From assembly GCA_963780985.1 (NCBI GenBank), contig CAWAEF010000031.1, positions 86,100 to 150,099 of the forward strand: 64,000 nucleotides of DNA, given 5' to 3'. This document shows, one piece after another, positions 1-26,330 of the stretch (position 1 is the stretch's first letter; the number at the start of each line of letters is the position of its first letter). A model generated the notes under the pieces. It worked only from the letters and a program-made list of their open reading frames with translations. It did no database searches and was not told the origin of the DNA. The position numbers were made by a program, and so were the translations under genes. The stretch is from an uncultured Alphaproteobacteria bacterium. Its GTDB lineage: Bacteria > Pseudomonadota > Alphaproteobacteria > JAGOMX01.

Positions 1-313
1 TAACTGTGACTTCTTCAGCATTCGTATGCCAGTGCGGAGGGATAACGTAACAATCCGGTAACTCAAGCCTTAGTGTATAGGGCTCTGCTTTGCTAATGTC
101 TCCACGAAGAACACTTATGTTTGCTCCGTCAGGTAATCCCGGTGCAGGGTGAAACTTAACATCAGCTTGTTGTATTATAATAGATTCGCTTTGTTTCGTT
201 GGTACAGGTGCATCTTGTTGATTTTTATTTTCATCTGCAGCATGTAAAAAAGCAATAAATAGTGAACAAGACAGCATGGCGCTAAATGCTATAGTTTTCA
301 AAAAAGCGTACAT
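1..313 (-). CDS. cupin-like secreted protein, N-terminal part only (gene runs off the left edge)
   Basis: ATG at 313-311 sits behind a GAAGGGGA purine run. My translation MYAFLKTIAFSAMLSCSLFIAFLHAADENK... has a signal-peptide-like start. It reaches the window edge in ...YVIPPHWHTNAEEVTV, a cupin-type motif. It is absent from the ORF track because there is no stop inside the window. Confidence 0.45.
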   Translation of the reverse strand, partial: MYAFLKTIAFSAMLSCSLFIAFLHAADENKNQQDAPVPTKQSESIIIQQADVKFHPAPGLPDGANISVLRGDISKAEPYTLRLELPDCYVIPPHWHTNAEEVTV

Positions 314-466
314 AATCATTTCCCCTTCTTTAGGTAGTGTTGCCGTAATGACGTAACAAGAATACCTTATAAATCTTAATGAAAAATTACGTAAATAAAC
401 ATTCAAATGGTACTACAAATGTACATTCCCCCCTTTAATAAAGCATTTACTAGAACTAGAAAAAGT

Positions 467-792
467 GGCTCTTATGTAAAAGGGGGGCTGGATGTAAACT
501 TCTACCCCCGGCAGACGTCATCCTGAACGGAGGACCGCGCAGCGGGCTGTATTGAAGGATCCAGTCAGACATGTGTCGCGTAGCGACCCTGCTTATAGAT
601 ATACCCAACCTACAAATGAAACAATCAGATGTCTACATGACGTTAAAAATGGGGCCATCTACAGCAGAGTTGCTTCGCGACACATGTCTGACTGGATCCC
701 ACACTGCCGCCCGCTGCGCGGTCCTCCGTTCAGGATGACGTCTGCCGGGGGGTAGAAGTTTACATCCAACCCAATCGTTTTGCATAAAAGCC
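467..792. repeat. family A palindromic MITE-like element, copy A1 (326 bp)
   Basis: Long terminal inverted repeats GGCTCTTATGYAAAA..GGATGTAAACTTCTACCCCCGGCAGACGTCATCCTGAACGG...GGATCC are mirrored at the right end. Related copies lie at 25958-26330, 52893-53252 and 56437-56796. Confidence 0.9.
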
Positions 793-1053
793 AAATTTAA
801 TAGAAGGATAATCCCCTGCTCTAACAGCCAAATGCGGCGAGCAAACTGTACCGATTATGAAACCACCTCAACAGATCCCATTACTCTGAGGATGGGCCCT
901 TACGCCATAACTGCCACTTGCTCGTCGGGATCCAGTCTGGGGTTGCTGGAGAGTGTCTTGCGGAAGTCGTCTATTACTTGCTTGGTTTCTTCCGCAGATA
1001 TGCCGAGGCCCAGAAGAACAGAGCTGGCCAGTTGAAGGCTTGGCTCTAGGGTT

Positions 1054-2622
1054 TCAGGAATGATGACTTCTTGCGCCGGCGGCGATCAGCTTCTTGGCAT
1101 AACGATCGTCGCGCAGGCGCACACAAACTTCTACATGAGGGAAGGCCTTTCGTATGTCCAATGTGACCTTCATGGACTTCGTGCTAGAGCTTAGACACAC
1201 GAGGATGACCTTGGCCTTCTTGGCGCCCAAAATATCCAACACATTGGGACGCAGGGCGTCGCCATAAAATACGGGCCAGCCACGGGCTCGGCCTAGGTTG
1301 ACCCTATCCATGTCATCATCGATGGCCACAAAAGGAATCACCCGTTCGGTCAACATGCGGGCCACTAATTTACCCACGCGTCCAAAGCCTAAAATGATAA
1401 CGTGATCCTTCAAGTCACCTTCCCGGAAAGCTTTGCGGATGGTCAGGGTCGACTCGGCCTCCGTATAACGGACCTCAAGGAACTTGCCCAGAGAGTCCAG
1501 CAACGGCGTCAAGCCCATAGATATAGCCACAGCCGCATACAAGATTTGTCCCAATTCTGCTGGAATAATATGGTTATCAATGGCCGGCCCAAAAATCACG
1601 AAAGCGAACTCACCGCCGCTTGCCAAGATCAATGCCACCCTGAGCGACGTCATGAAGGGCAGCATAAACACTCGACAAGAAATGATGATGAGCACGAACT
1701 TCGTCAAAATAAGGCTGGCAATAATTGCTGGCAACAAGACGATGTGATCAATAATGAGTCCCAAATCAATGGACATGCCGACAGTGATAAAGAACAGCCC
1801 CAACAGCAACCCATGGAAAGGTGCAACGTCTGCTTGCACCTGGTGTCGGTATTCGGTTTCCGAAAGCAACAGCCCCGCCAAAAAGGCGCCCAGCTCCATG
1901 GAAAGACCCGCGGCAGCTGTCGTTACACTGGTGGTCAGAATGACCAACAAAGTCATAGCCACAAACAGCTCCGGATTGCCGTGCTTCGACATTGCTCGGA
2001 ATAAAGGCCTCAAAATCATACGGCCAACGGCAATTATAACCGCCAGCACGACACCTGTCTTGACGGCAACCCACGCCAGCTCGTCGATAAGGGGAAGCTC
2101 GTTCTTGCCCATCGTGTTAACCAGCACCAACAGGACAACAACGGCCAGATCCTGGAACAGCAACACCGCAAAGGATGCACGTCCAAAACGGACCGCAAGC
2201 TCTTCACGTTCTGTCATGACTTGTAAGCTCACAGCCGTGGACGAAAGGGCCAGGGCGCTTCCAATAAGGATAGACGCCTGCACGGATACATCGACCATGT
2301 AACAAAATGTGCCTATGGCAAAGCTAGTGATTAAAACCTGCAGGGCCCCCAAGCCAAACACATAACGACGCATGCTCTGCAATCGTTCCAACGTAAGCTT
2401 GAGGCCTACGGAAAACAGGAAAAACACCACACCCATCTGGCCAAGGAATTTCGAGCTTTCAAGCTCACTGATAAACCCCAACAGGTGAGGCCCAATAAGA
2501 ACGCCAGCGATCATATACCCAATAACAGGACTTGCCTTAAAACGACGGAAAATCGAGACAACGACCACCGCCGAAAGCAAAAATACAATGATATCATTCA
2601 GATAGGGTGGTAATTCCTCCAA
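1054..2622 (-). CDS. kefB: CPA2 family K+/H+ antiporter (KefB/KefC-like) with a TrkA-N/KTN domain; the C-terminal tail continues in another frame to 900
   Basis: 522-aa ORF with many TM helices, then VIILGFGRVGKLVARML, a Rossmann/KTN motif. The ORF stops at 1054, but a frame shift near 1070 continues as EVIIPETLEPSLQLAS...VAVMA* to TAA at 902-900. Confidence 0.8.
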   Translation of the reverse strand: MEELPPYLNDIIVFLLSAVVVVSIFRRFKASPVIGYMIAGVLIGPHLLGFISELESSKFLGQMGVVFFLFSVGLKLTLERLQSMRRYVFGLGALQVLITSFAIGTFCYMVDVSVQASILIGSALALSSTAVSLQVMTEREELAVRFGRASFAVLLFQDLAVVVLLVLVNTMGKNELPLIDELAWVAVKTGVVLAVIIAVGRMILRPLFRAMSKHGNPELFVAMTLLVILTTSVTTAAAGLSMELGAFLAGLLLSETEYRHQVQADVAPFHGLLLGLFFITVGMSIDLGLIIDHIVLLPAIIASLILTKFVLIIISCRVFMLPFMTSLRVALILASGGEFAFVIFGPAIDNHIIPAELGQILYAAVAISMGLTPLLDSLGKFLEVRYTEAESTLTIRKAFREGDLKDHVIILGFGRVGKLVARMLTERVIPFVAIDDDMDRVNLGRARGWPVFYGDALRPNVLDILGAKKAKVILVCLSSSTKSMKVTLDIRKAFPHVEVCVRLRDDRYAKKLIAAGARSHHS

Positions 2623-2714
2623 CGCAGCGCCTTATGTATGTTTATGGGTTATGATAGATATAATATAATACCAAATTCAGGCGCAATAACAAGGAGAAAC
2701 CTTGAGCGGGATCC

Positions 2715-3455
2715 GGAAGTCAGAAACCAGAATCCGGAAACCGGAAACCAGAAACCGGAAACCAGAAACCGGAAACCAGAAACCGGAAACCAGAAACCAG
2801 AATCCAGAATCCGGAAACAAGAAACCAGAATCCGGAAACCGGAAAACAGAATTCAGGATTATTAGTTCAGCCCACAGCAACCGTCATCCTGAACGAACGA
2901 CCGCGAAGCGGGCGGTAGAGAAGGATCCAGTTAGACATGTGTGAGCGCAGCGAACTCCTTATTAACCTTCTCGCCCCAACGAAGTTAGTTTCGAGTTCGC
3001 TACGCTCACACAATTGCGCTGGATCCTGTCCAGCAACGCTTCGCTTATGCCGCTCGAGGATGACGGCCGCTGGGGCGGGATCGGTGACCTAAGGCACACT
3101 AAACTGGACTCCAGAAACCAGAAACCAGAAACCAGAAACCAGAAACCAGAAACCAGAAACCAGAAACCAGAAACCTGGATTATTAGTTCAGCCCCCAGCA
3201 ACCGTCATCCTGAACGGACGACCGCGAAGCGGGCGGTAGTGAAGGATCCAGTTAGACATGTGTGAGCGCAGCGAACGCCTTATTAGCACTCTCGCCCCAA
3301 CGAAGTTAGTTTCGAGTTCGCGACGCTCACACTATGTGCGCTGGATCCTGTCCAGCAACGCTTCGCTTATGCCGCTCGAGGATGACGGCCGCTGGAGGCG
3401 GAATCGGTGACCTAAGACACACTAAACTGGATTCCGGATTCCGGATTCTGGATTC
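2715..3455. repeat. composite repeat block: heptad array, palindromic core B1, heptad array, core B2, inverted heptad array
   Basis: 20 RGAAWCC heptads at 2715-2857. Core at 2883-3063. (CCAGAAA)x9 perfect at 3111-3175. Core at 3204-3386. 4 inverted heptads at 3429-3455. Confidence 0.9.
3111..3175. repeat. perfect 7-bp tandem repeat (CCAGAAA) x 9.3
   Basis: Read directly from the sequence: ccagaaaccagaaacc... with no mismatch. Confidence 0.95.
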
Positions 3456-3463
3456 TAACCTTA

Positions 3464-4932
3464 CTAAATACTATAATACATCTCAAACTCAATCGGATGC
3501 GGCACCCTTGAGAACATATGAATTTCCTCTTGTTTGATCCCGATATAGGCATCAATCAGATCATTGGTAAACACATCCCCCTTCAGCAGGTATTCACGAT
3601 CCTCGTTGAGCGCACGAACAGCATCCTGCAGCGACGTGCACAAAAGCCCGTACTTGTTCTCGCCATGCTTTGTTTCGTACAAATTTATATCCAGGGCCTC
3701 TCCGGGGTGGATCTTGTTTTGTATACCATCCAAACCAGCCATCATCATTGCCGTCAAGGCTAAATACCCATTGGCAGTCGCGTCGGGGAAGCGCACTTCA
3801 ATACGCCTCTGTCGCGGTTCAGGAATGTGGGGATCCTCAGCGCCGCGGAACGATTGCGCGCCGAGTATGCAATGTAAACAGGTGCTTCAAAGCCCGGAAC
3901 CAGTCGTTTATAACTATTCGTCGTCGGATTGGTAAACGCATTCAATGACCGGGCGTGATGGATGATGCCGCCGATGTAATGCAGGGCCAGTTCAGACAGT
4001 CCGCCATATTCATTGCCTGGGAACAGGGGCTCCCCATTCTTCCACAGGGACTGGTGCACATGCATCCCAGAACCATTGTCGCCATAAATGGGCTTGGGCA
4101 TAAACGTAACAGTCTTGTTGAAATTATGGGCTACATTGCGAATCACATATTTGAACAGCTGCAGGTTATCACCGGTCGTCAGCAGGTCAGCGTACTTAAA
4201 GCCAATCTCGTGCTGACCGGATGCCACTTCATGGTGATGCTTGTCGCCATTCAGTCCCATGGTATTCATGACCGACAACATCTCCGCCCGAAGGTCATTG
4301 GCCGAATCCACCGGCGGCACAGGGAAATAGCCCTTGCCAGGCAGCATCTTATGGCCAAAATGACGCATATGCCCTTTGGTGTTCAATAAAGAGCTATTCG
4401 GATAGGCACCTTCGGTCCAGTTGATATTATAAAAGGAATTTTGTGGGCTGGTCTCATAATGCACTTCATCAAAGATAAAGAACTCAGGCTCAGGTCCAAA
4501 ACGCGCCTCATCGGCAATACCTGTCTGGCGCAGGTATTCTTCACCCTTTACAGCCACAGAACGCGGGTCGCGGGAATACTGCTTACCCGAGGATGGCTCA
4601 ACCACACTGCAGAACACGATCAACGTCGTATGTTCAGTCAGCTGGTCAAATACCGCATTGGTAGAATCCGGGGAAAGCAACATGTCAGAATCATGAATCG
4701 GCCGCCAGCCAGTTATCGAAGAGCCATCAAACATAAGTCCATCGCAAAGAGTCGCCTCATCTAGAGCATTCTTGTGCACCGATAGATGATGCCAGACACC
4801 CTGCATATCCGTGAAACGAAAGTCGACGTATTCAGCCCCGCCATCGTTGACTTGCTTCATGATGCGCGCCGCATGTTCCTTGCGAGAGCTGTTAAATGAA
4901 TCGTAAGAACTGGTTTTAAGTGCCTTTGACAT
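3464..4932 (-). pseudogene. glnA: glutamine synthetase type I, interrupted by one frameshift near 3817-3830
   Basis: The 390-aa ORF (3760-4932) carries GSI motifs (KPIYGDNGSGMHVHQSLW, YSARNRSAALRIP). The 110-aa ORF (3464-3796) is the GSI C-terminus (RFPDATANGYLALTAMMMAGLDGIQNKIHPGE). The second frame reads back as PEPRQRRIEVRFPD, so the two pieces join with a 1-nt shift. Confidence 0.85.
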
Positions 4933-5952: not shown

Positions 5953-7221
5953 TCAAAACACGTGCTTCACCAAAGGTGTCTTATGCAACACCTTCGCCGT
6001 CAACGTCCAAGCCAGCCCTAGTGCAAACGCAAACACAATGGCCATCTTAATCCCATTTGGCAGCCCCACGTTCATCAGCCCGTATTGACTCCACACCACG
6101 ATGGGCTCGTGCAGGTAGAAAATACCATAGGAACAGGCGCCCAGAGAGGCCCATTTACCTATATCATCGTTGGTAAACTTATACAGCACTATCATAATCG
6201 TAAATATTTGAGCCGTACACATGAAGCCATGCAGAGTCGTCCGAATCAACAACCCTGGCGCCACCTCGCGAAATAAGCCCCAAGCGTTATCCATACTGCC
6301 GCCCATGGCGAAATACCGCTGGATATCATTACTGAATGCACCCGTATAAAGATGAGCCTGATTGTACCAGCTATAGGCAATGGACAAAATCACCAAAAGC
6401 CCCACCCAGGCCAGCCAGTTGGCAGAAGCACGCTCCATGATATCTGTTTTCTTCAACAGATCCGCATTGGCCACCCCAACCCCGAGGATAAAGAAAAAGA
6501 TATAGCTGAATAGCATATTACTACGGGCCACAAACAGACCGACAAAGGCTGAAAGCCACGAATTGTCATCCATAATCACAAGATCACCCAGCCCCATCCA
6601 CCAAGGGGTCCCCCAGCGTACATCGCTATATCCAATCAGGATCGAGGCAATAATAGCAACGATCAAATACCCAACAACAGGCCGCCCCGCCAACCAAGCG
6701 GTCAGCCGCCCGATAAACCTGGTTACAAAAGGCAAGATCAAGTCCACAAAAGCAGTCACAAACGTGAACAGCAACAGAAAGGCAATGAACCAAAACCCCG
6801 CTGGGCTGAAGTTCTCTGGTGTCAAGAACACGTTCCACCAATAATCAAAATAGCCAATGCCTGGCTCTTGAGTTTCTTCGTATTTAACATAACGTAGAGG
6901 CGGCACCAATACGGCGATACCCACAAGCATGGGAATGAACAGCCGGACTGTTTTTTCCTTAATAAAGCTGAGCCATCCACGGCGATAAAGGGATGGCAGC
7001 ACAAACATACCGGCCAGGAAAAAGAGAGCCTGCATGATAAAGGCATCGGTCCACATAAACATCACATCAAAAGCACGACTGCGGTCGGGCAGGTCTATAA
7101 ACCACATCCGTCCGCCCCATTGTTCAGCATATCCTTGAACAGCATGCTGCAAGACGACGAAGGCAATCATCAATCCGCGCATATGGTCTAAATAATGGAA
7201 CCGTGCTTTCGTGGCAATCAT
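5953..7221 (-). CDS. acyltransferase family 3 membrane protein (OpgC/OafA-like)
   Basis: RFHYLDHMRGLMIAFVVLQHA motif and about 10 TM segments. I place the start at the ATG at 7221, behind AAGGAG. The longer ORF to 7446 overlaps the divergent neighbour. Confidence 0.75.
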   Translation of the reverse strand: MIATKARFHYLDHMRGLMIAFVVLQHAVQGYAEQWGGRMWFIDLPDRSRAFDVMFMWTDAFIMQALFFLAGMFVLPSLYRRGWLSFIKEKTVRLFIPMLVGIAVLVPPLRYVKYEETQEPGIGYFDYWWNVFLTPENFSPAGFWFIAFLLLFTFVTAFVDLILPFVTRFIGRLTAWLAGRPVVGYLIVAIIASILIGYSDVRWGTPWWMGLGDLVIMDDNSWLSAFVGLFVARSNMLFSYIFFFILGVGVANADLLKKTDIMERASANWLAWVGLLVILSIAYSWYNQAHLYTGAFSNDIQRYFAMGGSMDNAWGLFREVAPGLLIRTTLHGFMCTAQIFTIMIVLYKFTNDDIGKWASLGACSYGIFYLHEPIVVWSQYGLMNVGLPNGIKMAIVFAFALGLAWTLTAKVLHKTPLVKHVF

Positions 7222-11105: not shown

Positions 11106-14100
11106 ATGAAAGACTTTAAAGATTACGAGAAAATGGTAAAAAGCAAGAGGCATAACGTCCTGCCCCTCCTGATGCTCGTTGACCTAAATCTAGATAAAAT
11201 CCTCGATTGGATCCATGAGGGTCACTTTAAGCCTCTTCCTGACCATTCTGGAAATCACGAATTAACAACTGTGGCAGGCCATAGCGGCGTGATCTTTGCA
11301 GACGGTGCGTCAGATCTTCTGACTTACGCTGCCAGTACAGTTCCAGTAGATCCTGTTTATATGGAGACAGCCGCACATACAAAACCCCACCATTCACATG
11401 ATCTTGATTATGATGAGGCCAAGGACAAGGTCGTGCCAGAAGGTCATGCGAATCAACAGAAGTCAGAATCTGACGGAAACTTCGATTACAGTGGCTCAGC
11501 AAGCGTAAATTTCGTGCATCCTGGTATATCTACGGACTGGTCGCAAACATTGGCCGGATCCAAGTTCGCTGGCGTGACCGCCCCTGCAGGCTTTGGCACT
11601 ATAGCCCCAGATAATTTTTATAGCGGCATTCGTGTAACGGGCGCCCTATTGCCATACTCAGGCGGCGCGGACTTTTTGCCCGCCGATGATTATTTCAGTG
11701 GTAGCGCCGGTCTTTTGAGCGCTTTGAGCCCCGGGCTAGCTCCTCTAGGGTTGAGTCGTGAGATTGATCCCTTGATTCCAGTGCCCCAAATCCACTTTCT
11801 TGAGGAGGAAGAGAACGTCCCCCAGGTACAGTACATACCGGTTCATAACTATATTCCACCAAATCTTCCACCAATGCACATGTGTATGCTTGCGTTGACC
11901 TATCCCGTATTGAACCCTACCCCGATCTACGATATGCCTTGCGATTCACGTTCGGGCAACCTCGTCATAGATTCTGGTGCCTATGATAACGATGGCTCAC
12001 CTATCCATGTGGACTCGGTGTCCTTTGATGCGGGAACTTCCTCACCAGGTATTTCAGCCGGCCCAGGTGTTATTACGGACGGGCACGAAATCATAACGAT
12101 TTATTTTGATGGTACCATCGAGATTGGAACCTTGAATGTGAACCTATCAACAGGAGCATACACTTATGCGAATGCACCTGGTGCCGATAAGCTGCCCATA
12201 GGCGCCAATATTATAGAGTTTCAGTTCGTCTTAGGTGAAGCCGGGATGAGCTGCACAGCCACGGGCACGTTGAACGTGACCGTCGAGGGCGGTAACTGTA
12301 TGATCACTATTCCCGAGCCTATACTTAACCCACCTCCTATCTGGGATGACATGTGCTCATCGCTTTCTGGCAACATCATCGTGGATTCCGGTGCTTACGA
12401 TGGTAATGGCACGCCTATTCATGTGGACTCCGTATCCTTTGATGCCGGTACATCTTCCAAAGGCATAACCGCCGGTTCTCCTGATCTGACAAGTGTACCT
12501 GGCCATGAGCTTATCAATGTCTTTTATGACAGCACCGAGATTGGTACCCTGAATGTAACTTTGGCAACCGGTGCTTATACCTATTCCAATAGCGCCAATG
12601 CGGACGTTTTGCCCGAAGGCAAGAACGTTATTGAGTTCAACTTCACTCTCGGTGATGGTATGGAAGGCTGCGGCTGTGGTTGCACAGCCACTGGTACACT
12701 GAACGTGACCGTCGAGGGCGGCAGTTGCATGATCACCCTTTGCGAGCCTATTCTTAACCCACCTCCCATCTATGATGACATGTGCGCATCGGTTATGGGT
12801 AACATCATTGTCGATTCCGGTGCGAGCGATGGCAATGGCTCACCTATCCATGTGGACTCCGTTGCCTTTGATGCCGCTACCTCTTCCAAGGGCATCACTG
12901 CCGGTACTCCAGATCTGACATCTGTCCCTGGCCATGAGCTTATCAATGTCTTTTATGACAGCACCGAGATTGGCACGCTGAATGTAACTTTGGCAACCGG
13001 TGCTTATACTTACGCCAATAGCGCCAACGCAGACGTTTTGCCCGAAGGCAAGAACGTTATAGAGTTCAAATTCACGCTCGGTGATGGTATGGACGGCTGC
13101 GACTGTGGTTGCACAGCCACTGGCACACTGAACGTGACCGTCGAGGGCGGCAGTTGCATGATCACCCTTTGCGAGCCTATTCTTAACCCACCTCCCATCT
13201 ATGATGACATGTGCGCATCGGTTATGGGTAACATCATTGTCGATTCCGGTGCGAGCGATGGCAATGGCTCACCTATCCATGTGGACTCCGTTGCCTTTGA
13301 TGCCGCTACCTCTTCCAAGGGCATCACTGCCGGTACTCCAGATCTGACATCTGTCCCTGGCCATGAGCTTATCAATGTCTTTTATGACAGCACCGAGATT
13401 GGCACGCTGAATGTAACTTTGGCAACCGGTGCTTATACTTACGCCAATAGCGCCAACGCAGACGTTTTGCCCGAAGGCAAGAACGTTATAGAGTTCAAAT
13501 TCACTCTCGGTGATGGTATGGACGGCTGCGACTGTGGTTGCACAGCCACTGGCACACTGAACGTGACCGTCGAGGGCGGCAGTTGCATGATCACCCTTTG
13601 CGAGCCTATTCTTAACCCACCTCCCATCTATGATGACATGTGCGCATCGGTTATGGGTAACATCATTGTCGATTCCGGCGCTGCCGATGGCAATGGCTCA
13701 CCTATCCATGTGGACTCCGTTGCCTTTGATGCCGGTACCTCTTCCAAGGGCATCACTGCCGGTACTCCAGATCTGACATCTGTCCCTGGCCATGAGCTTA
13801 TCAATGTCTTTTATGACAGCACCGAGATTGGCACGCTTAATGTAACTTTAGCAACCGGTGCTTATACTTACGCCAATAGCGCCAACGCAGACGTTCTGCC
13901 CGAAGGCAAGAACGTTATAGAGTTCAAATTCACGCTCGGTGATGGTATGGACGGCTGCGACTGTGGTTGCACAGCCACTGGTACACTGAACGTGACCGTC
14001 GAGGGCGGCAGTTGCATGATCACCCTTTGCGAGCCTATTCTTAACCCACCTCCCATCTATGATGACATGTGCGCATCGGTTATGGGTAACATCATTGTCG

Positions 14101-17100
14101 ATTCCGGTGCGAGCGATGGCAATGGCTCACCTATCCATGTGGACTCCGTTGCCTTTGATGCCGCTACCTCTTCCAAGGGCATCACTGCCGGTACTCCAGA
14201 TCTGACATCTGTCCCTGGCCATGAGCTTATCAATGTCTTTTATGACAGCACCGAGATTGGCACGCTGAATGTAACTTTGGCAACCGGTGCTTATACTTAC
14301 GCCAATAGCGCCAACGCAGACGTTTTGCCCGAAGGCAAGAACGTTATAGAGTTCAAATTCACGCTCGGTGATGGTATGGACGGCTGCGACTGTGGTTGCA
14401 CAGCCACTGGCACACTGAACGTGACCGTCGAGGGCGGCAGTTGCATGATCACCCTTTGCGAGCCTATTCTTAACCCACCTCCCATCTATGATGACATGTG
14501 CGCATCGGTTATGGGTAACATCATTGTCGATTCCGGTGCGAGCGATGGCAATGGCTCACCTATCCATGTGGACTCCGTTGCCTTTGATGCCGCTACCTCT
14601 TCCAAGGGCATCACTGCCGGTACTCCAGATCTGACATCTGTCCCTGGCCATGAGCTTATCAATGTCTTTTATGACAGCACCGAGATTGGCACGCTGAATG
14701 TAACTTTGGCAACCGGTGCTTATACTTACGCCAATAGCGCCAACGCAGACGTTTTGCCCGAAGGCAAGAACGTTATAGAGTTCAAATTCACTCTCGGTGA
14801 TGGTATGGACGGCTGCGACTGTGGTTGCACAGCCACTGGCACACTGAACGTGACCGTCGAGGGCGGCAGTTGCATGATCACCCTTTGCGAGCCTATTCTT
14901 AACCCACCTCCCATCTATGATGACATGTGCGCATCGGTTATGGGTAACATCATTGTCGATTCCGGTGCGAGCGATGGCAATGGCTCACCTATCCATGTGG
15001 ACTCCGTTGCCTTTGATGCCGCTACCTCTTCCAAGGGCATCACTGCCGGTACTCCAGATCTGACATCTGTCCCTGGCCATGAGCTTATCAATGTCTTTTA
15101 TGACAGCACCGAGATTGGCACGCTGAATGTAACTTTGGCAACCGGTGCTTATACTTACGCCAATAGCGCCAACGCAGACGTTTTGCCCGAAGGCAAGAAC
15201 GTTATAGAGTTCAAATTCACTCTCGGTGATGGTATGGACGGCTGCGACTGTGGTTGCACAGCCACTGGCACACTGAACGTGACCGTCGAGGGCGGCAGTT
15301 GCATGATCACCCTTTGCGAGCCTATTCTTAACCCACCTCCCATCTATGATGACATGTGCGCATCGGTTATGGGTAACATCATTGTCGATTCCGGCGCTGC
15401 CGATGGCAATGGCTCACCTATCCATGTGGACTCCGTTGCCTTTGATGCCGGTACCTCTTCCAAGGGCATCACTGCCGGTACTCCAGATCTGACATCTGTC
15501 CCTGGCCATGAGCTTATCAATGTCTTTTATGACAGCACCGAGATTGGCACGCTTAATGTAACTTTAGCAACCGGTGCTTATACTTACGCCAATAGCGCCA
15601 ACGCAGACGTTCTGCCCGAAGGCAAGAACGTTATAGAGTTCAAATTCACGCTCGGTGATGGTATGGACGGCTGCGACTGTGGTTGCACAGCCACTGGCAC
15701 ACTGAACGTGACCGTCGAGGGCGGCAGCTGCATGATCACCCTTTGCGAGCCTATTCTTAACCCACCTCCCATCTATGATGACATGTGCGCATCGGTTATG
15801 GGTAACATCATTGTCGATTCCGGCGCTGCCGATGGCAATGGCTCACCTATCCATGTGGACTCCGTTGCCTTTGATGCCGGTACCTCTTCCAAGGGCATCA
15901 CTGCCGGTACTCCAGATCTGACATCTGTCCCTGGCCATGAGCTTATCAATGTCTTTTATGACAGCACCGAGATTGGCACGCTTAATGTAACTTTGGCAAC
16001 CGGTGCTTATACCTATTCCAATAGCGCCAACGCTGACGTTCTGCCCGAAGGCAAGAACGTTATTGAGTTCAACTTCACTCTCGGTGATGGTATGGAAGGC
16101 TGCGGCTGTGGTTGCACAGCCACTGGCACACTGAACGTGACCGTCGAGGGCGGCAGCTGCATGATCACCCTTTGCGAGCCTATTCTTAACCCACCTCCCA
16201 TCTATGATGACATGTGCGCATCGGTTATGGGTAACATCATTGTCGATTCCGGCGCTGCCGATGGCAATGGCTCACCTATCCATGTGGACTCCGTTGCCTT
16301 TGATGCCGGTACCTCTTCCAAGGGCATCACTGCCGGTACTCCAGATCTGACATCTGTCCCTGGCCATGAGCTTATCAATGTCTTTTATGACAGCACCGAG
16401 ATTGGCACGCTTAATGTAACTTTAGCAACCGGTGCTTATACTTACGCCAATAGCGCCAACGCAGACGTTCTGCCCGAAGGCAAGAACGTTATAGAGTTCA
16501 AATTCACGCTCGGTGATGGTATGGACGGCTGCGACTGTGGTTGCACAGCCACTGGCACACTGAACGTGACCGTCGAGGGCGGCAGTTGCATGATCACCCT
16601 TTGCGAGCCTATTCTTAACCCACCTCCCATCTATGATGACATGTGCGCATCGGTTATGGGTAACATCATTGTCGATTCCGGCGCTGCCGATGGCAATGGC
16701 TCACCTATCCATGTGGACTCCGTTGCCTTTGATGCCGGTACCTCTTCCAAGGGCATCACTGCCGGTACTCCAGATCTGACATCTGTCCCTGGCCATGAGC
16801 TTATCAATGTCTTTTATGACAGCACCGAGATTGGCACGCTTAATGTAACTTTAGCAACCGGTGCTTATACTTACGCCAATAGCGCCAACGCAGACGTTCT
16901 GCCTGAAGGCAAGAACGTTATAGAGTTCAAATTCACTCTCGGTGATGGTATGGACGGCTGCAGCTGTGAATGCACAGCCACTGGCACACTGAACGTGTCA
17001 GTCGAGGGCGGTAGTTGCGAGATTACTCTTTGTGAGCCAGTGCTCAATCCAGCTCCTATCTGTGCTATGCCTTGCGATTCCGTAGCAGGCAATCTGGTGG

Positions 17101-18725
17101 TTGACACTGGTGCCCATGATACTGACAATGCCGGTATTACCGTGAGCAACGTGGCGTTTGATGCCGGTAGCTCATCCAGTCATATCACCGCTGGTGCGGG
17201 TCTGGTGTCCAATGGGCATGAAATAATTACGGTTTACTTTAATGGCACCACCGAGATTGGCACCTTGAATGTGAACTTGAGCACAGGCGCTTATACCTAT
17301 AACAATACCGCTGGCGCTGAGAATCTTCCCGATGGTCCTAACACCATTGAGTTTAAGTTTACTTTGAGCGATAGCATGGACGCCGATGGCTGTATGTGCG
17401 GCTGCTCCGTCGATGCTACCTTGAATATCACCGTGGTCGGCGACGAAGGCTGCAAGATTACTCTCTGCCAGCCAGTGCTTAACCCACCAGCTATCTGTGA
17501 TGACACTTGCGATTCTGTTAATGGCAACCTGGTGGTTGACACCGGTGCTCATGACAACGAAAATGCGGGTATTACCGTGAGCAGCGTTGCGTTTGACGCC
17601 GGCAGCTCATCCAGTCATATCACCGCCGGGGCAGGTGTGGTGTCCAATGGGCATGAGACCTTTGCAGTATACTTTAGTGGTGCCGAGATTGGTACGCTGA
17701 ATGTGAACTTGAGCACAGGTGCTTACACCTATAACAATACCGCTGGTGCTGAGAATCTCCCCGATGGCCTTCACACCATTGAGTTTAATTTCACCTTGAG
17801 TGATAGCATGAACTCTGATGGTTGTATGTGCGGCTGCTCGGCTGATGGTGTCTTGAACATCTCCGTGGCCGGCGATGAAGGCTGCAAGGTTACTCTTTGC
17901 GAGCCTGTACTCAACCCATGTCTTATCGGTGATGCGCCTTGCGTTTCCGTTGTCGGCAACCTTGTGGTTGACACCGGTGCTCATGATAACGATGGTGCTG
18001 CGATCCATGTGAGCAATGTGGCGTTTGATGCGGGCAGTTCTTCCACAGGAATTACTGCGGGGGCGGGCGTTATTTCAAATGGACATGAAGATTTTAATGT
18101 TTACTTTGATAATAATGTCCAGATAGGGACTTTGGATGTCAATCTCAGCAGTGGTGCTTATACCTATTCGAATACGGCTGGTGCTGAAAAGTTGCCTATG
18201 GGTGATAACACCATCGAGTTTAATTTTACTCTGGATGATGGCATGAGCTCCAAAGATTACGGCTGTGATTGTTCAGCGCAAGGTACATTGAACGTTTCCG
18301 TCCTCGGTGCGGGCGATGTAATCGTTAACCATTGCTCGGATAAATTTGGCAGTGGTGATAGCTATATCTTTGATGTGGAGACGGGCAGTAATGGTAAGAT
18401 ATGCTTAGCCGGGGCGCAACAAGATCTAATATTAAATTATAACGGTGCAGATTGTTTTGAGTTCGACGACCATACCGCAAACGGGGTACTATGTGCTTTA
18501 GATAAGCTGCACGATAATCATCTTACCAGCGGTGAGTGCAATCAGGCCGAGCTTAATAATTTAGGCATAACATGCACTGTAGGCCACTATGGTCCGGACC
18601 CAAGCGCCATCGATACAAAGATCAGCTTTGCGGGCGGCGGCTGCATCATCATACAGAATTGCAGTGATACCCAATTTGCTGAACATCTGATTGCAGCTGG
18701 GAAGTGCGAGGTTTCACACGCATAA
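11106..18725 (+). CDS. giant repetitive surface/secreted protein with 15 VCBS-like (cadherin/Ig-like) 143-aa modules, Cys-rich
   Basis: 2539-aa ORF. The module ...IHVDSVAFDA..GTLNVTLATGAYTYANSANADVLPEGKNVIEFKFTLGDG... resembles the VCBS repeat pattern. Each module has 6 Cys (LC, MC, GCDCGC, SC). There is no N-terminal signal peptide. Confidence 0.85.
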   Translation: MKDFKDYEKMVKSKRHNVLPLLMLVDLNLDKILDWIHEGHFKPLPDHSGNHELTTVAGHSGVIFADGASDLLTYAASTVPVDPVYMETAAHTKPHHSHDLDYDEAKDKVVPEGHANQQKSESDGNFDYSGSASVNFVHPGISTDWSQTLAGSKFAGVTAPAGFGTIAPDNFYSGIRVTGALLPYSGGADFLPADDYFSGSAGLLSALSPGLAPLGLSREIDPLIPVPQIHFLEEEENVPQVQYIPVHNYIPPNLPPMHMCMLALTYPVLNPTPIYDMPCDSRSGNLVIDSGAYDNDGSPIHVDSVSFDAGTSSPGISAGPGVITDGHEIITIYFDGTIEIGTLNVNLSTGAYTYANAPGADKLPIGANIIEFQFVLGEAGMSCTATGTLNVTVEGGNCMITIPEPILNPPPIWDDMCSSLSGNIIVDSGAYDGNGTPIHVDSVSFDAGTSSKGITAGSPDLTSVPGHELINVFYDSTEIGTLNVTLATGAYTYSNSANADVLPEGKNVIEFNFTLGDGMEGCGCGCTATGTLNVTVEGGSCMITLCEPILNPPPIYDDMCASVMGNIIVDSGASDGNGSPIHVDSVAFDAATSSKGITAGTPDLTSVPGHELINVFYDSTEIGTLNVTLATGAYTYANSANADVLPEGKNVIEFKFTLGDGMDGCDCGCTATGTLNVTVEGGSCMITLCEPILNPPPIYDDMCASVMGNIIVDSGASDGNGSPIHVDSVAFDAATSSKGITAGTPDLTSVPGHELINVFYDSTEIGTLNVTLATGAYTYANSANADVLPEGKNVIEFKFTLGDGMDGCDCGCTATGTLNVTVEGGSCMITLCEPILNPPPIYDDMCASVMGNIIVDSGAADGNGSPIHVDSVAFDAGTSSKGITAGTPDLTSVPGHELINVFYDSTEIGTLNVTLATGAYTYANSANADVLPEGKNVIEFKFTLGDGMDGCDCGCTATGTLNVTVEGGSCMITLCEPILNPPPIYDDMCASVMGNIIVDSGASDGNGSPIHVDSVAFDAATSSKGITAGTPDLTSVPGHELINVFYDSTEIGTLNVTLATGAYTYANSANADVLPEGKNVIEFKFTLGDGMDGCDCGCTATGTLNVTVEGGSCMITLCEPILNPPPIYDDMCASVMGNIIVDSGASDGNGSPIHVDSVAFDAATSSKGITAGTPDLTSVPGHELINVFYDSTEIGTLNVTLATGAYTYANSANADVLPEGKNVIEFKFTLGDGMDGCDCGCTATGTLNVTVEGGSCMITLCEPILNPPPIYDDMCASVMGNIIVDSGASDGNGSPIHVDSVAFDAATSSKGITAGTPDLTSVPGHELINVFYDSTEIGTLNVTLATGAYTYANSANADVLPEGKNVIEFKFTLGDGMDGCDCGCTATGTLNVTVEGGSCMITLCEPILNPPPIYDDMCASVMGNIIVDSGAADGNGSPIHVDSVAFDAGTSSKGITAGTPDLTSVPGHELINVFYDSTEIGTLNVTLATGAYTYANSANADVLPEGKNVIEFKFTLGDGMDGCDCGCTATGTLNVTVEGGSCMITLCEPILNPPPIYDDMCASVMGNIIVDSGAADGNGSPIHVDSVAFDAGTSSKGITAGTPDLTSVPGHELINVFYDSTEIGTLNVTLATGAYTYSNSANADVLPEGKNVIEFNFTLGDGMEGCGCGCTATGTLNVTVEGGSCMITLCEPILNPPPIYDDMCASVMGNIIVDSGAADGNGSPIHVDSVAFDAGTSSKGITAGTPDLTSVPGHELINVFYDSTEIGTLNVTLATGAYTYANSANADVLPEGKNVIEFKFTLGDGMDGCDCGCTATGTLNVTVEGGSCMITLCEPILNPPPIYDDMCASVMGNIIVDSGAADGNGSPIHVDSVAFDAGTSSKGITAGTPDLTSVPGHELINVFYDSTEIGTLNVTLATGAYTYANSANADVLPEGKNVIEFKFTLGDGMDGCSCECTATGTLNVSVEGGSCEITLCEPVLNPAPICAMPCDSVAGNLVVDTGAHDTDNAGITVSNVAFDAGSSSSHITAGAGLVSNGHEIITVYFNGTTEIGTLNVNLSTGAYTYNNTAGAENLPDGPNTIEFKFTLSDSMDADGCMCGCSVDATLNITVVGDEGCKITLCQPVLNPPAICDDTCDSVNGNLVVDTGAHDNENAGITVSSVAFDAGSSSSHITAGAGVVSNGHETFAVYFSGAEIGTLNVNLSTGAYTYNNTAGAENLPDGLHTIEFNFTLSDSMNSDGCMCGCSADGVLNISVAGDEGCKVTLCEPVLNPCLIGDAPCVSVVGNLVVDTGAHDNDGAAIHVSNVAFDAGSSSTGITAGAGVISNGHEDFNVYFDNNVQIGTLDVNLSSGAYTYSNTAGAEKLPMGDNTIEFNFTLDDGMSSKDYGCDCSAQGTLNVSVLGAGDVIVNHCSDKFGSGDSYIFDVETGSNGKICLAGAQQDLILNYNGADCFEFDDHTANGVLCALDKLHDNHLTSGECNQAELNNLGITCTVGHYGPDPSAIDTKISFAGGGCIIIQNCSDTQFAEHLIAAGKCEVSHA
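12290..17010. repeat. tandem array of 11 near-identical 429-bp units inside the giant gene
   Basis: Antisense marker ORFs recur every 429 bp from 12581 to 16871. The units differ by only a handful of SNPs. Confidence 0.95.
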
Positions 18726-24720: not shown

Positions 24721-25241
24721 GGGCTCTGCCCAAACCCCGGGATATATAAAAGAAACCCAGAGATCATTATCCTCGATCAAGTAATTTCAATGGAAGAGGG
24801 GCGGCCTAAGCCACCCCTCAATCTCTGGTTTTCTGCGGCCATCGGCGTCCCCGCCTGTACCGCATTCACAGAATTATCATATTTCCGTTTTAAAACGACT
24901 CAAATTTTAATTGCCTCACTCGACCTCATCGTGCAATGCAGTCCTAGTGCCCCGAATCATTAATTCTGCCCCCGGGGCCCGTCATTCTGAAACGGACGAC
25001 CGCGAAGCGGGCGGTAGTGAAGAATCCAGTTAAACATGTGTAAGCGCAGCGAACTCTTTATATAAACTACTCGCCCCAAGTAGGCTAGTTACGAGTTCGC
25101 TAAGCTCACACTATTGCGCTGGGCCCTGTTCAGCAACGCTTCGCCTATGCTGCTCAGGACAACGATCAAGGGGGTAGAATTAGTGATTCGGCATTTAGAA
25201 CCCATCTCTGGGTTCTACAACTATGGTTTGGGGCAGAGCCC
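24721..25241. repeat. nested repeat: family D inverted ends enclosing a type-B palindromic core
   Basis: GGGCTCTGCCCAAACC..AAACCCAGAGAT at 24721-24770 is mirrored at 25198-25241. A B-type core lies at 24981-25164. A further D end is at 41320-41370. Confidence 0.8.
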
Positions 25242-25932: not shown

Positions 25933-25957
25933 GATTATTCTCCTATTATTATTTTAC

Positions 25958-26330
25958 GGCTCTTATGCAAAACGGGTGGGTTGGATGTAATATTCTGCCC
26001 CTGCAGACGTCATCCTGAACGGACGACCGCGAAGCGGGCGGTAGTGAAGGATCCAGTTATAGATGTGTCGCGTAGCGACTCTGCTTATAAGTATACCCAC
26101 TATACAAATGTTACAGCCAGCTGTCGACATGACGTTAAAAATGGGGCCATCTACAGTAGAGTCGCTTCGCGACGCATGTCTTACTGGATCCTTCACTACC
26201 GCCCGCTTCGCGGTCGTCCGTTCAGGATGACGGGAACCGGGAGCCGTGAATATTCTCCTTGCAATTATCCTCATTCACATTCAGTTCAGGATAATGACTA
26301 CCCATTACCCACCCGTTTTGCATAAGAGCC
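25958..26330. repeat. family A element, copy A2
   Basis: It has the same termini and central block (CATGACGTTAAAAATGGGGCCATCTACAG) as A1, A3 and A4. Confidence 0.9.

Follow-up and report, generated by a model that had tools for sequence, protein, structure and literature searches.

The kefB-glnA spacer and two further composite loci

The window analyzed is a stretch of 64,000 nt from an uncultured alphaproteobacterium (assembly GCA_963780985.1, contig CAWAEF010000031.1). The spacer between its kefB and glnA genes (locus 1) is occupied by a composite repeat in which tandem arrays of the heptad RGAAWCC, in forward (F) or inverted (R) orientation, stand around palindromic cores. Two further composites are present in the window, a miniature and locus 3. 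Their parts are listed below, with a strand given for the arrays and with Tandem Repeats Finder abbreviated as TRF.

2715-2855 (end at about 2854), + strand: F array of locus 1, about 20 RGAAWCC heptads (TRF: 18.7 copies, 83% match)
2856-3110: core 1a, type II palindromic core (fold, arm signature)
3111-3175, + strand: F array between the two cores, nine perfect CCAGAAA units (TRF)
3176-3428: core 1b, 95% identical to core 1a (second copy of a 321-322-bp period of array plus core)
3429-3456, - strand: R array of locus 1, four inverted heptads, next to the glnA stop codon
41784-41849: miniature composite, made up of a 19-nt hairpin between about 3.5 F units and three R units (sequence, fold)
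50495-50599, + strand: F array of locus 3, 15 units including the rare AGGAGAT and AGAAAGC (TRF)
50600-50724: core 2, 125-bp hairpin dimer with arms CGTC-ATTGC...GCAAT-CCAG (fold, signature)
50725-50811, - strand: R array of locus 3, 12 units including the rare AGAAGAT and AGAAAGC (TRF)

An earlier note on this DNA had described locus 1 as 20 heptads, a core, nine CCAGAAA units, a second core and four inverted heptads, forming a block of about 740 bp bounded by inverted arrays. This layout was borne out, with the F array starting at 2715 and the R array ending at 3456. The palindromic core of locus 1 is present as well; its length, from GTCAT to ATGAC, is 182 bp (2883-3064) and not 181 bp. The same design with a different core at 50495-50811 and the miniature, which ends at 41849 and not at 41848, were found where the note had placed them, and the terminal heptad AGAAGTC that it saw merging into the core start GTCATCC does so in the miniature.

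The F array of locus 1 (2715-2855) is interrupted by variant units and has GGAAGTC as its outermost unit. In core 1a, a CGTC-tagged arm (2882-2930, + strand) stands opposite a diverged inverted arm ending at 3064-3065, and terminal modules lie on the left (GGATTATTAGTTCAGCCC) and on the right (...CACTAAACTGGACTCC). The hairpin of the miniature (GTCATCCTGAATGGATGGC) is a single short stem-loop resembling the CGTC-tagged repetitive extragenic palindromic (REP) elements, and its first 17 nt equal a core arm except for two C-to-T differences. Core 2 bears GCGCAGC mini-hairpins at its apex. Locus 3 has the rare units AGRAGAT and AGAAAGC in each of its arms, and on either side AGRAGAT is the second unit counted from the outer end; the two arms therefore share ancestry and were not grown separately.

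TRF reported array rows at 2721-2851, 3111-3175, 3429-3455, 41784-41809, 50509-50600, and 50724-50810. Two-unit RGAAWCC matches with at most one mismatch were counted 51 times in the window, compared to 0.43 expected, and none of 100 shuffles reached 51. Folding as single-stranded DNA yielded -62.4 kcal/mol for core 1a (z = -7 versus shuffles), -19.9 kcal/mol for the miniature (z = -5), and -128.7 kcal/mol for locus 3 (z = -19). Each of the three loci has inverted heptad arrays around a strongly folding palindromic core, and the dyad of all three is a CGTC-type hairpin.

Hairpin signature of the cores

In CGTC-tagged REPs, the tag is CGTC or TGTC, the stem starts with AT and the tail is CCA; their units form inverted dimers. 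They are common in alphaproteobacteria, in some cases lie within other palindromes, and were described as lacking a dedicated transposase (Di Nocera et al., 2013, PMC3733652). The Ssn GIY-YIG nucleases cut NTS and Ssn-related motifs (SRM) as single-stranded DNA; the NTS is CGTCATTCCCGCGMAVGCGGGAATCYRG, the gene architecture is NTS-ssnA-NTS, and the 3′ stem together with the CCAG tail is reported to be most important for nuclease binding (PMC11893778). The published SRM/CGTC-REP form has a stem of 8-9 bp and a loop of 4-5 nt.

For a census of the cores, a metagenome scan with the arm pattern was carried out, which resulted in 52 stretches (402 kb) from two Joint Genome Institute (JGI) samples. 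Since the core arms are common to all 52 and four of the stretches coincide with parts of the window (96-99.5% identity), all of them were taken as belonging to the same organism as the window. Core and arm counts refer to the resulting 430 kb of window and extra sequence.

The arms are characterized by an NGTC tag, an AT-first stem, a GCGAAGC or GCGCAGC apex and a CCAG tail. The pattern NGTC-ATxxx...x′x′x′AT-CCRG occurs 129 times in the 430 kb and 0-1 times in shuffles. Every signature arm ends in ATCCAG or ATCCGG, in agreement with the CCA tail of the CGTC-tagged REPs and the CYRG tail of the NTS. At stem position 3, 98 C:G pairs, five T:A pairs and no uncompensated pair were counted, in at least two arm backgrounds. 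From this clean covariation, it follows that each arm folds alone as a single strand.

The arms of the capped cores, i.e., those flanked by arrays, do not match the published SRM pattern HGTCWYN(0-2)YYVSBRHN(0-5)WNVSBRGN(0-2)RNCYNB. They are compound, with a 5-bp outer stem enclosing a structured insert of 29-38 nt, and were for this reason assigned to a variant of the CGTC-REP/SRM family and not to its canonical members. Matches to the published pattern are restricted to one dimer (60471/60566) in the window and 29 sites in the extra 402 kb. By their arm sequences, the cores are identified as compound CGTC-tagged REP / NTS-SRM hairpin dimers with the tags outermost. The arrays are heptanucleotide long simple sequence repeats (SSRs) (PMC4692102, PMC4679880). 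Since the cores are of the kind described in PMC3733652 and PMC11893778, the statement of the earlier note that the composite repeat was not recognized no longer applies to its components.

Further members of the family are dispersed in the window without arrays, as detected by sequence comparison or, for the last entry, by its motif on both strands:

452-790: uncapped type I core, internal-deletion derivative of a GIY-YIG element
24956-25175: type II core without arrays (84% identity to core 1)
25939-26290: uncapped type I core
42580-42860: uncapped core, type II-like at the center and type I-like in both arms
52940-53262: uncapped type I core, reverse orientation
56438-56770: uncapped type I core
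60471-60593: short inverted dimer of canonical SRM / CGTC-REP form with TGTCATCCCCGCGAAGGCGGGGATCCAG on either strand, tags at the outside

Both sides of the core at 452-790 carry the outer module GGCTCTTATG...GGATGTAA. The termini of the core at 24956-25175 are GAATCATTAATTCT and AGAATTAGTGATTC, each corresponding to one F-like plus one R-like heptad, and its arm has a compensated ATTCT/AGAAT stem. The right end of the core at 42580-42860 is reiterated in 2.3 copies of a 38-bp repeat (ATGACGGTGGCGGGGGAGTTTATGTTCTTCCATTTAGC) at 42773-42858. The canonical dimer has a structured spacer of 67 bp and the flanks CCCCCAG...CTGGGAGGG.

A coding copy with a GIY-YIG gene

On the JGI contig Ga0182030_10007343 (L163, 6602-7092), the same core arms enclose a gene for a single-domain GIY-YIG protein of 93 aa (6722-7000; Pfam GIY-YIG, E = 4.3e-12). 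It is the only GIY-YIG coding copy of the core family in about 470 kb. Aligned with this copy, type I cores match it through the left arm, the 5′ leader and approximately nine initial codons (27 nt from the ATG) and then continue with the right arm. Because both ends are retained while the sequence jumps to the right arm, the type I cores are internal-deletion derivatives of this element, similar to transposable elements of the miniature inverted-repeat type (MITEs). The single master copy is accompanied by about 40 derivatives in the 430 kb, four of which are the uncapped derivatives in the window.

SRM hairpins also flank homologues of this gene in three other organisms. For the protein encoded on L163, no match was obtained by PDB sequence search or in NCBIfam. 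No target-site duplication was evident at the ends of the window composites or the uncapped cores, a comparison that comprised filled sites only.

Co-occurrence of arrays and cores

In the 430 kb, seven of 52 paired cores are capped by arrays, so the composite is not an obligate unit. The arrays likewise form hairpins without a core in this organism: on L163, 12 F and 17 R units surround a 36-bp spacer, on L157, 15 F and six R units surround a 28-bp spacer, and a third case was found on L131. Both classes occur independently, yet they are joined far above chance in this genome.

The view of the earlier note that the block is modular and recurs was confirmed by further composites with other cores in the same organism. 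Among these, L151 contains its core X twice in the layout F-core-F-core-R, as in locus 1, L158 has a nested core, and on L163 the GIY-YIG element itself is capped. Mobility of the composite as one element, as the same note had proposed, is unsupported in this genome.

Array length variation

For the kefB-glnA spacer, a second allele was available from L120 and from L130 and L167. Three independent alleles of locus 1 could not be counted: the versions from European Nucleotide Archive analysis ERZ27248494 and JGI Ga0182030 are identical and probably stem from one sample, which leaves two alleles. In the second allele the R array on the glnA side has nine units instead of four (+5 units, +35 bp) and the middle CCAGAAA array eight instead of nine (-1 unit, -7 bp). 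These indels are exact multiples of 7 within otherwise about 99% identical DNA, and the cores and the interrupted 20-unit array of locus 1 are unchanged. At locus 3, both arrays and the core are identical in the second allele (L128, 99% identity over 13.4 kb).

Whole-unit differences are found in pure arrays only; slippage therefore affects the pure arrays, the interrupted ones being stable, as is normal for SSRs. The array caps grow and shrink by slipped-strand mispairing. The unstable copy number expected in the earlier note thus holds for the two pure arrays and does not extend to the 20-unit interrupted array or to either array of locus 3. That note had further named length-invariant arrays and an architecture occurring nowhere else as speaking against its interpretation; here, lengths vary and further sites exist in the same organism.

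An assembly artifact as the source of the arrays was ruled out, as the loci recur in other assemblies (L120, L128, L130 and L167). Contigs from short reads frequently stop within heptad arrays (L121 2200-2243, L167 1-80, and several GTDB loci), so such loci are systematic assembly break points. The identity of the second allele to the window is 96% over the kefB region (window 1-3929) and 99% over the IalB region (45859-59279), which suggests recombination between strains or mixed strain assemblies.

Position relative to genes

The distance from the window arrays to the nearest stop codon is 7 nt for glnA, 0 (or -1) nt for vapC, where the last base of the miniature is part of the stop codon, and 2 nt (or 0 by another measure) for the IalB-like gene. 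Of the four gene ends at which the earlier note had placed the arrays, these three stops stand, whereas the kefB start codon lies 92 nt away from the array of locus 1, with a promoter-like site in between. Altogether, a stop codon is found 0-26 nt from the end of 12 of the 13 composites, while distances from start codons are 67-136 nt, in line with arrays that fill spacer DNA which is dispensable; 12 of 13 are without a spanning open reading frame (ORF) and are intergenic. No T-tract follows the hairpins, and the matches of the terminator scan are trivial stems inside the arrays. An Rfam search of the block gave no match at the gathering score or with E-values up to 1.

Several features of the adjacent genes were recorded. 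Compared to the metagenome allele, glnA (3760-3840) lacks 1 bp of a C5 run near 3832, leading to ORFs of 390 and 110 aa, and kefB has a 1-bp insertion near 1072, leading to 522 aa, homologues having 574 aa. These differences could be homopolymer assembly errors or real pseudogenes, the latter being common in symbionts. Directly upstream of the miniature, a vapBC-type toxin-antitoxin pair is located (41849-42488; PIN domain and MazE/AbrB-like antitoxin). Elsewhere in the window, an ORF of 2,539 aa (11106-18725) contains a 429-bp tandem repeat in 11.2 copies (12252-17038, 97% match) and, behind these, another 2.4 diverged copies of 432 bp; the product is probably a giant repetitive surface protein.

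Relatives and lineage specificity

KefB homologues place the window organism near Holosporales, Nucleicultrix and Paracaedimonas, the closest KefB relative having 84% identity; exact-protein look-ups with KefB and VapC found no match. Relatives were compared by syntenic DNA (L122-L125 with 81% and L126 with 75% KefB identity). Heptad arrays and core copies are absent from the approximately 20 kb of syntenic DNA of these relatives. With neither repeat class present at 75-81% KefB identity, both classes are, on this comparison, recent and lineage-specific expansions.

Heptad arrays in other organisms

GTDB was scanned, with one genome per species, for five RGAAWCC units, resulting in at least 118 stretches. 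The matches listed, on which all statements in this section are based, derive from Planctomycetota, Acidobacteriota, Gammaproteobacteria, Actinomycetota, Bacteroidota, Verrucomicrobiota, Chlamydiota, Cyanobacteria, and others. In these 118 loci, period 7 is by far the commonest (253 period-7 rows, 91 heptad classes) and different heptads frequently lie side by side. Solitary arrays are the rule in other genomes; about 12 convergent array pairs with spacers of 13-90 bp were found in other phyla.

Two general links were rejected. Palindromes with arms of at least 20 nt lie beside 8% of the arrays and in 12% of the control windows, and the five matches to SRM hairpins in 829 kb of other phyla correspond to background.

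The composite layout recurs in a Chlamydiae metagenome-assembled genome (MAG; JABDEI01) and a related layout is found in a Lysobacterales MAG; it is not general among the 118 loci. In the former (L104 1200-1940), (TAGTCAG)n and (CAGAATC)n precede the palindromic cores A and B, which are separated by two units and followed by the mirrored arrays; this gives a two-layer array palindrome around two cores. In the latter (L114 4100-4560), a GTAG-tagged REP dimer (cGTAGGTCGGGGTTACATCCCCGAC and its inverse) is located between arrays of three to four kinds of heptads (GGTGTTT, GGGGTCC, GGAAACC, and CTGAACC).

In nine actinomycete genomes (L007, L021, L035, L042, L058, L069, L082, L097, and L112), (GGAAACC)5-14 is located inside a conserved ORF, between ...PHG(M/A)GYNK and FGLSxEWLxHDG...GDPxFDR. 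Although the unit number differs, the frame is kept in seven of the nine (not in L042 and L112). This coding array may serve as a variable linker, or possibly as a phase switch.

Comparison with known repeat systems

Heptamer repeats are over-represented in bacteria and have no established function; in Xanthomonas, hundreds of GGGAATC arrays are known, including convergent inverted pairs (PMC4692102, PMC4679880). Due to these records, the array caps are assigned to a known kind. Like the heptanucleotide long SSRs described so far (cyanobacterial heptamers, Xanthomonas GGGAATC, Beggiatoaceae TAACTGA), the present arrays consist of tandem 7-nt intergenic units and vary widely in length between close relatives. 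The convergent Xanthomonas pairs can also form stem-loops, and GGGAATC is one base off CGGAATC. Unlike in these systems, nearly every array found here is an arm of a long palindrome, mostly with a REP-type core at the dyad, an arrangement that is not described in PMC4692102 or PMC4679880. The units AGAAACC, GGAAACC, AGAATCC, and GGAATCC contain at most GG on either strand and thus, lacking a G-run, do not belong to the G-quadruplex-type heptamers of Xanthomonas and Nostoc.

The cores share with the CGTC-tagged REPs and NTS-SRM elements the tag, the AT-first stem, the GCG-NA-GC apex, the CCAG tail, the inverted dimers, the abundance in alphaproteobacteria and symbionts, and an approximately 93-aa GIY-YIG gene flanked by the motif. 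They differ in their compound arms and in the many copies that are 180-330-bp MITE-like units. Heptad arrays as an outer palindrome are not mentioned in PMC3733652 or PMC11893778.

Bacterial interspersed mosaic elements (BIMEs) and REP doublet hairpins (REPINs), which are associated with the tyrosine transposase RAYT (PMC3116915), resemble the cores as 3′ intergenic mosaics of REP hairpins in inverted arrangement, with an action in single-stranded DNA, and as non-autonomous units linked to one rare coding master copy. In contrast to these, the tag is CGTC and not GTAG, and the enzyme is of the GIY-YIG nuclease type instead of an HUH tyrosine transposase. The SSR arrays present here at the flanks are no feature of BIMEs.

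Foldback (FB) transposons of Drosophila have long inverted termini of short tandem repeats with 10-31-bp units in varying number and a heterogeneous central loop, and their arms can sit almost back to back; these elements are eukaryotic, and their mobility and target-site duplications are documented. The likeness of the composites to them is structural only, consisting of inverted variable tandem-repeat termini around a heterogeneous center. The composites differ by their 7-bp units, the bacterial host, the lack of target-site duplications at the sites compared and the lack of signs of transposase recognition.

A literature text search with heptad strings returned irrelevant primer matches only. 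The combination of heptad arms with SRM cores, as well as deletion-derivative ssn-type copies, seems to be undescribed in the literature searched.

Origin of the composites

The interpretation preferred here, with a probability of roughly 55%, is that the block is a mosaic of two separate repeat classes, which are co-located since both form or exploit hairpins. Palindromic SRM elements would take up positions at the apex, or within one arm, of array hairpins. By switching of the template across the hairpin when it is replicated (quasipalindrome correction), the arms would be kept mirrored and extended outward, until the extension is halted by a selected sequence, i.e., a stop codon on one side and a promoter on the other. 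As likely consequences, a very stable 3′ untranslated hairpin, a hot spot of length change and recombination, and assembly breaks would result. The repeats are probably selfish or neutral DNA and not a conserved means of regulation.

Several points weigh against this mosaic. Capping is biased, as five of about 10 type II cores (180 bp) and one of about 40 type I cores are capped, and the type II termini resemble one F plus one R heptad, which fits a seeding of the arrays from the core ends at least equally well. On L163 the GIY-YIG element is capped in the opposite polarity (R17-core-F6), whereas insertion at an apex predicts otherwise. No pair of an empty-site and a filled-site allele was found, and the insertion of a core into an array hairpin is in this respect inferred. 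The extra 402 kb were chosen for having core arms, so the census is biased. Template switching is taken from the general knowledge of quasipalindromes. Finally, in L059 (JABDEI01) an array/88-bp core/array unit occurs twice with unrelated flanks (4434-4620 and 6829-7022), and these copies look like movement of a whole composite; this is the only suggestive case, and none was found in the window organism.

This L059 pair is at the same time an argument for a foldback-type mobile element, in which the arrays are terminal inverted repeats and the whole unit moves, perhaps via a single-stranded hairpin intermediate processed by an Ssn-type nuclease. The two copies are 2.4 kb apart, and their homology starts and stops exactly at the arrays. 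The mirrored rare units in both arms of locus 3 agree with such an element, as does the outermost GGAAGTC, which recurs at array ends of locus 1, the miniature, L151, and L104. Locus 1 can also be read as F20-core-R1 followed by F9-core-R4, and L151 as F-coreX-F-coreX-R, giving the appearance of a composite within an arm; however, tandem units of array plus core arise equally from unequal exchange between arrays. The three window composites have three different cores and no visible target-site duplications, the 45 uncapped cores and the rule of solitary arrays in other genomes do not fit a unit moving as a whole, and Ssn nucleases have no known transposition activity (PMC11893778). Movement of this type is considered rather unlikely.

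The capping bias would be explained directly if the arrays had been seeded in place from heptad-like core termini and had slipped outward, inverted termini giving rise to inverted arrays. The type II ends (GAATCAT/TAATTCT-like) can be read as single heptads even in the uncapped copy at 24956, the arrays are continuous with the type II terminal units, and the 3′ stem and tail of an arm (AGAATCCAG or AGGATCCAG) amount to 1.3 heptad units. Such seeding accounts neither for the array hairpins without a core in the same organism nor for core 2 and the miniature, which are capped and yet have no terminal module. The same heptad arrays occur in many phyla in which SRM hairpins are at background level, and the opposite polarity around the GIY-YIG element on L163 disagrees with seeding as well; as an explanation of the arrays it is unlikely.

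The position of 12 of 13 composites 0-26 nt after a stop codon and the extreme stability of the predicted hairpins would be expected of selected cis elements acting as terminators, as stabilizers of mRNA 3′ ends or as protein-binding arrays for the adjacent genes, and REPs are generally found downstream of genes and thought to be RNA elements (PMC3733652). Against such a role, the composites are absent from the syntenic spacers of the relatives at 75-81% KefB identity, their length is polymorphic between near-identical alleles, the neighboring genes are functionally unrelated, and proximity to stop codons is equally explained by tolerance. Together with the missing T-tract, the trivial nature of the terminator-like stems and the negative Rfam search, this makes a selected function very doubtful.

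Significance

The unit AGAATCC-AG repeats the 3′ stem and CCAG tail of the SRM hairpin. Heptad arrays could therefore be functional partners of Ssn/SRM elements, serving as landing pads or termini in a bacterial counterpart of the foldback transposons, an idea that we regard as improbable. If true, some of the heptamer arrays across phyla might be traces of the spread of hairpin elements through single-stranded DNA. Although known since 1990 and over-represented in bacteria, heptamer arrays are without an accepted origin or role. For the CGTC-tagged REPs, a dedicated enzyme was still described as missing in 2013 (PMC3733652), and the link to Ssn was made only in 2025 (PMC11893778).

The window organism offers a dense, recently expanded population in which both classes are physically joined, with a single nuclease master and dozens of derivatives. 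The composite loci break short-read assemblies and are candidate markers for strain typing. The array lengths are measurably variable between alleles. Together, these features make two ideas testable in this organism, namely that hairpin repeats target or seed microsatellite palindromes and that Ssn elements are mobile.

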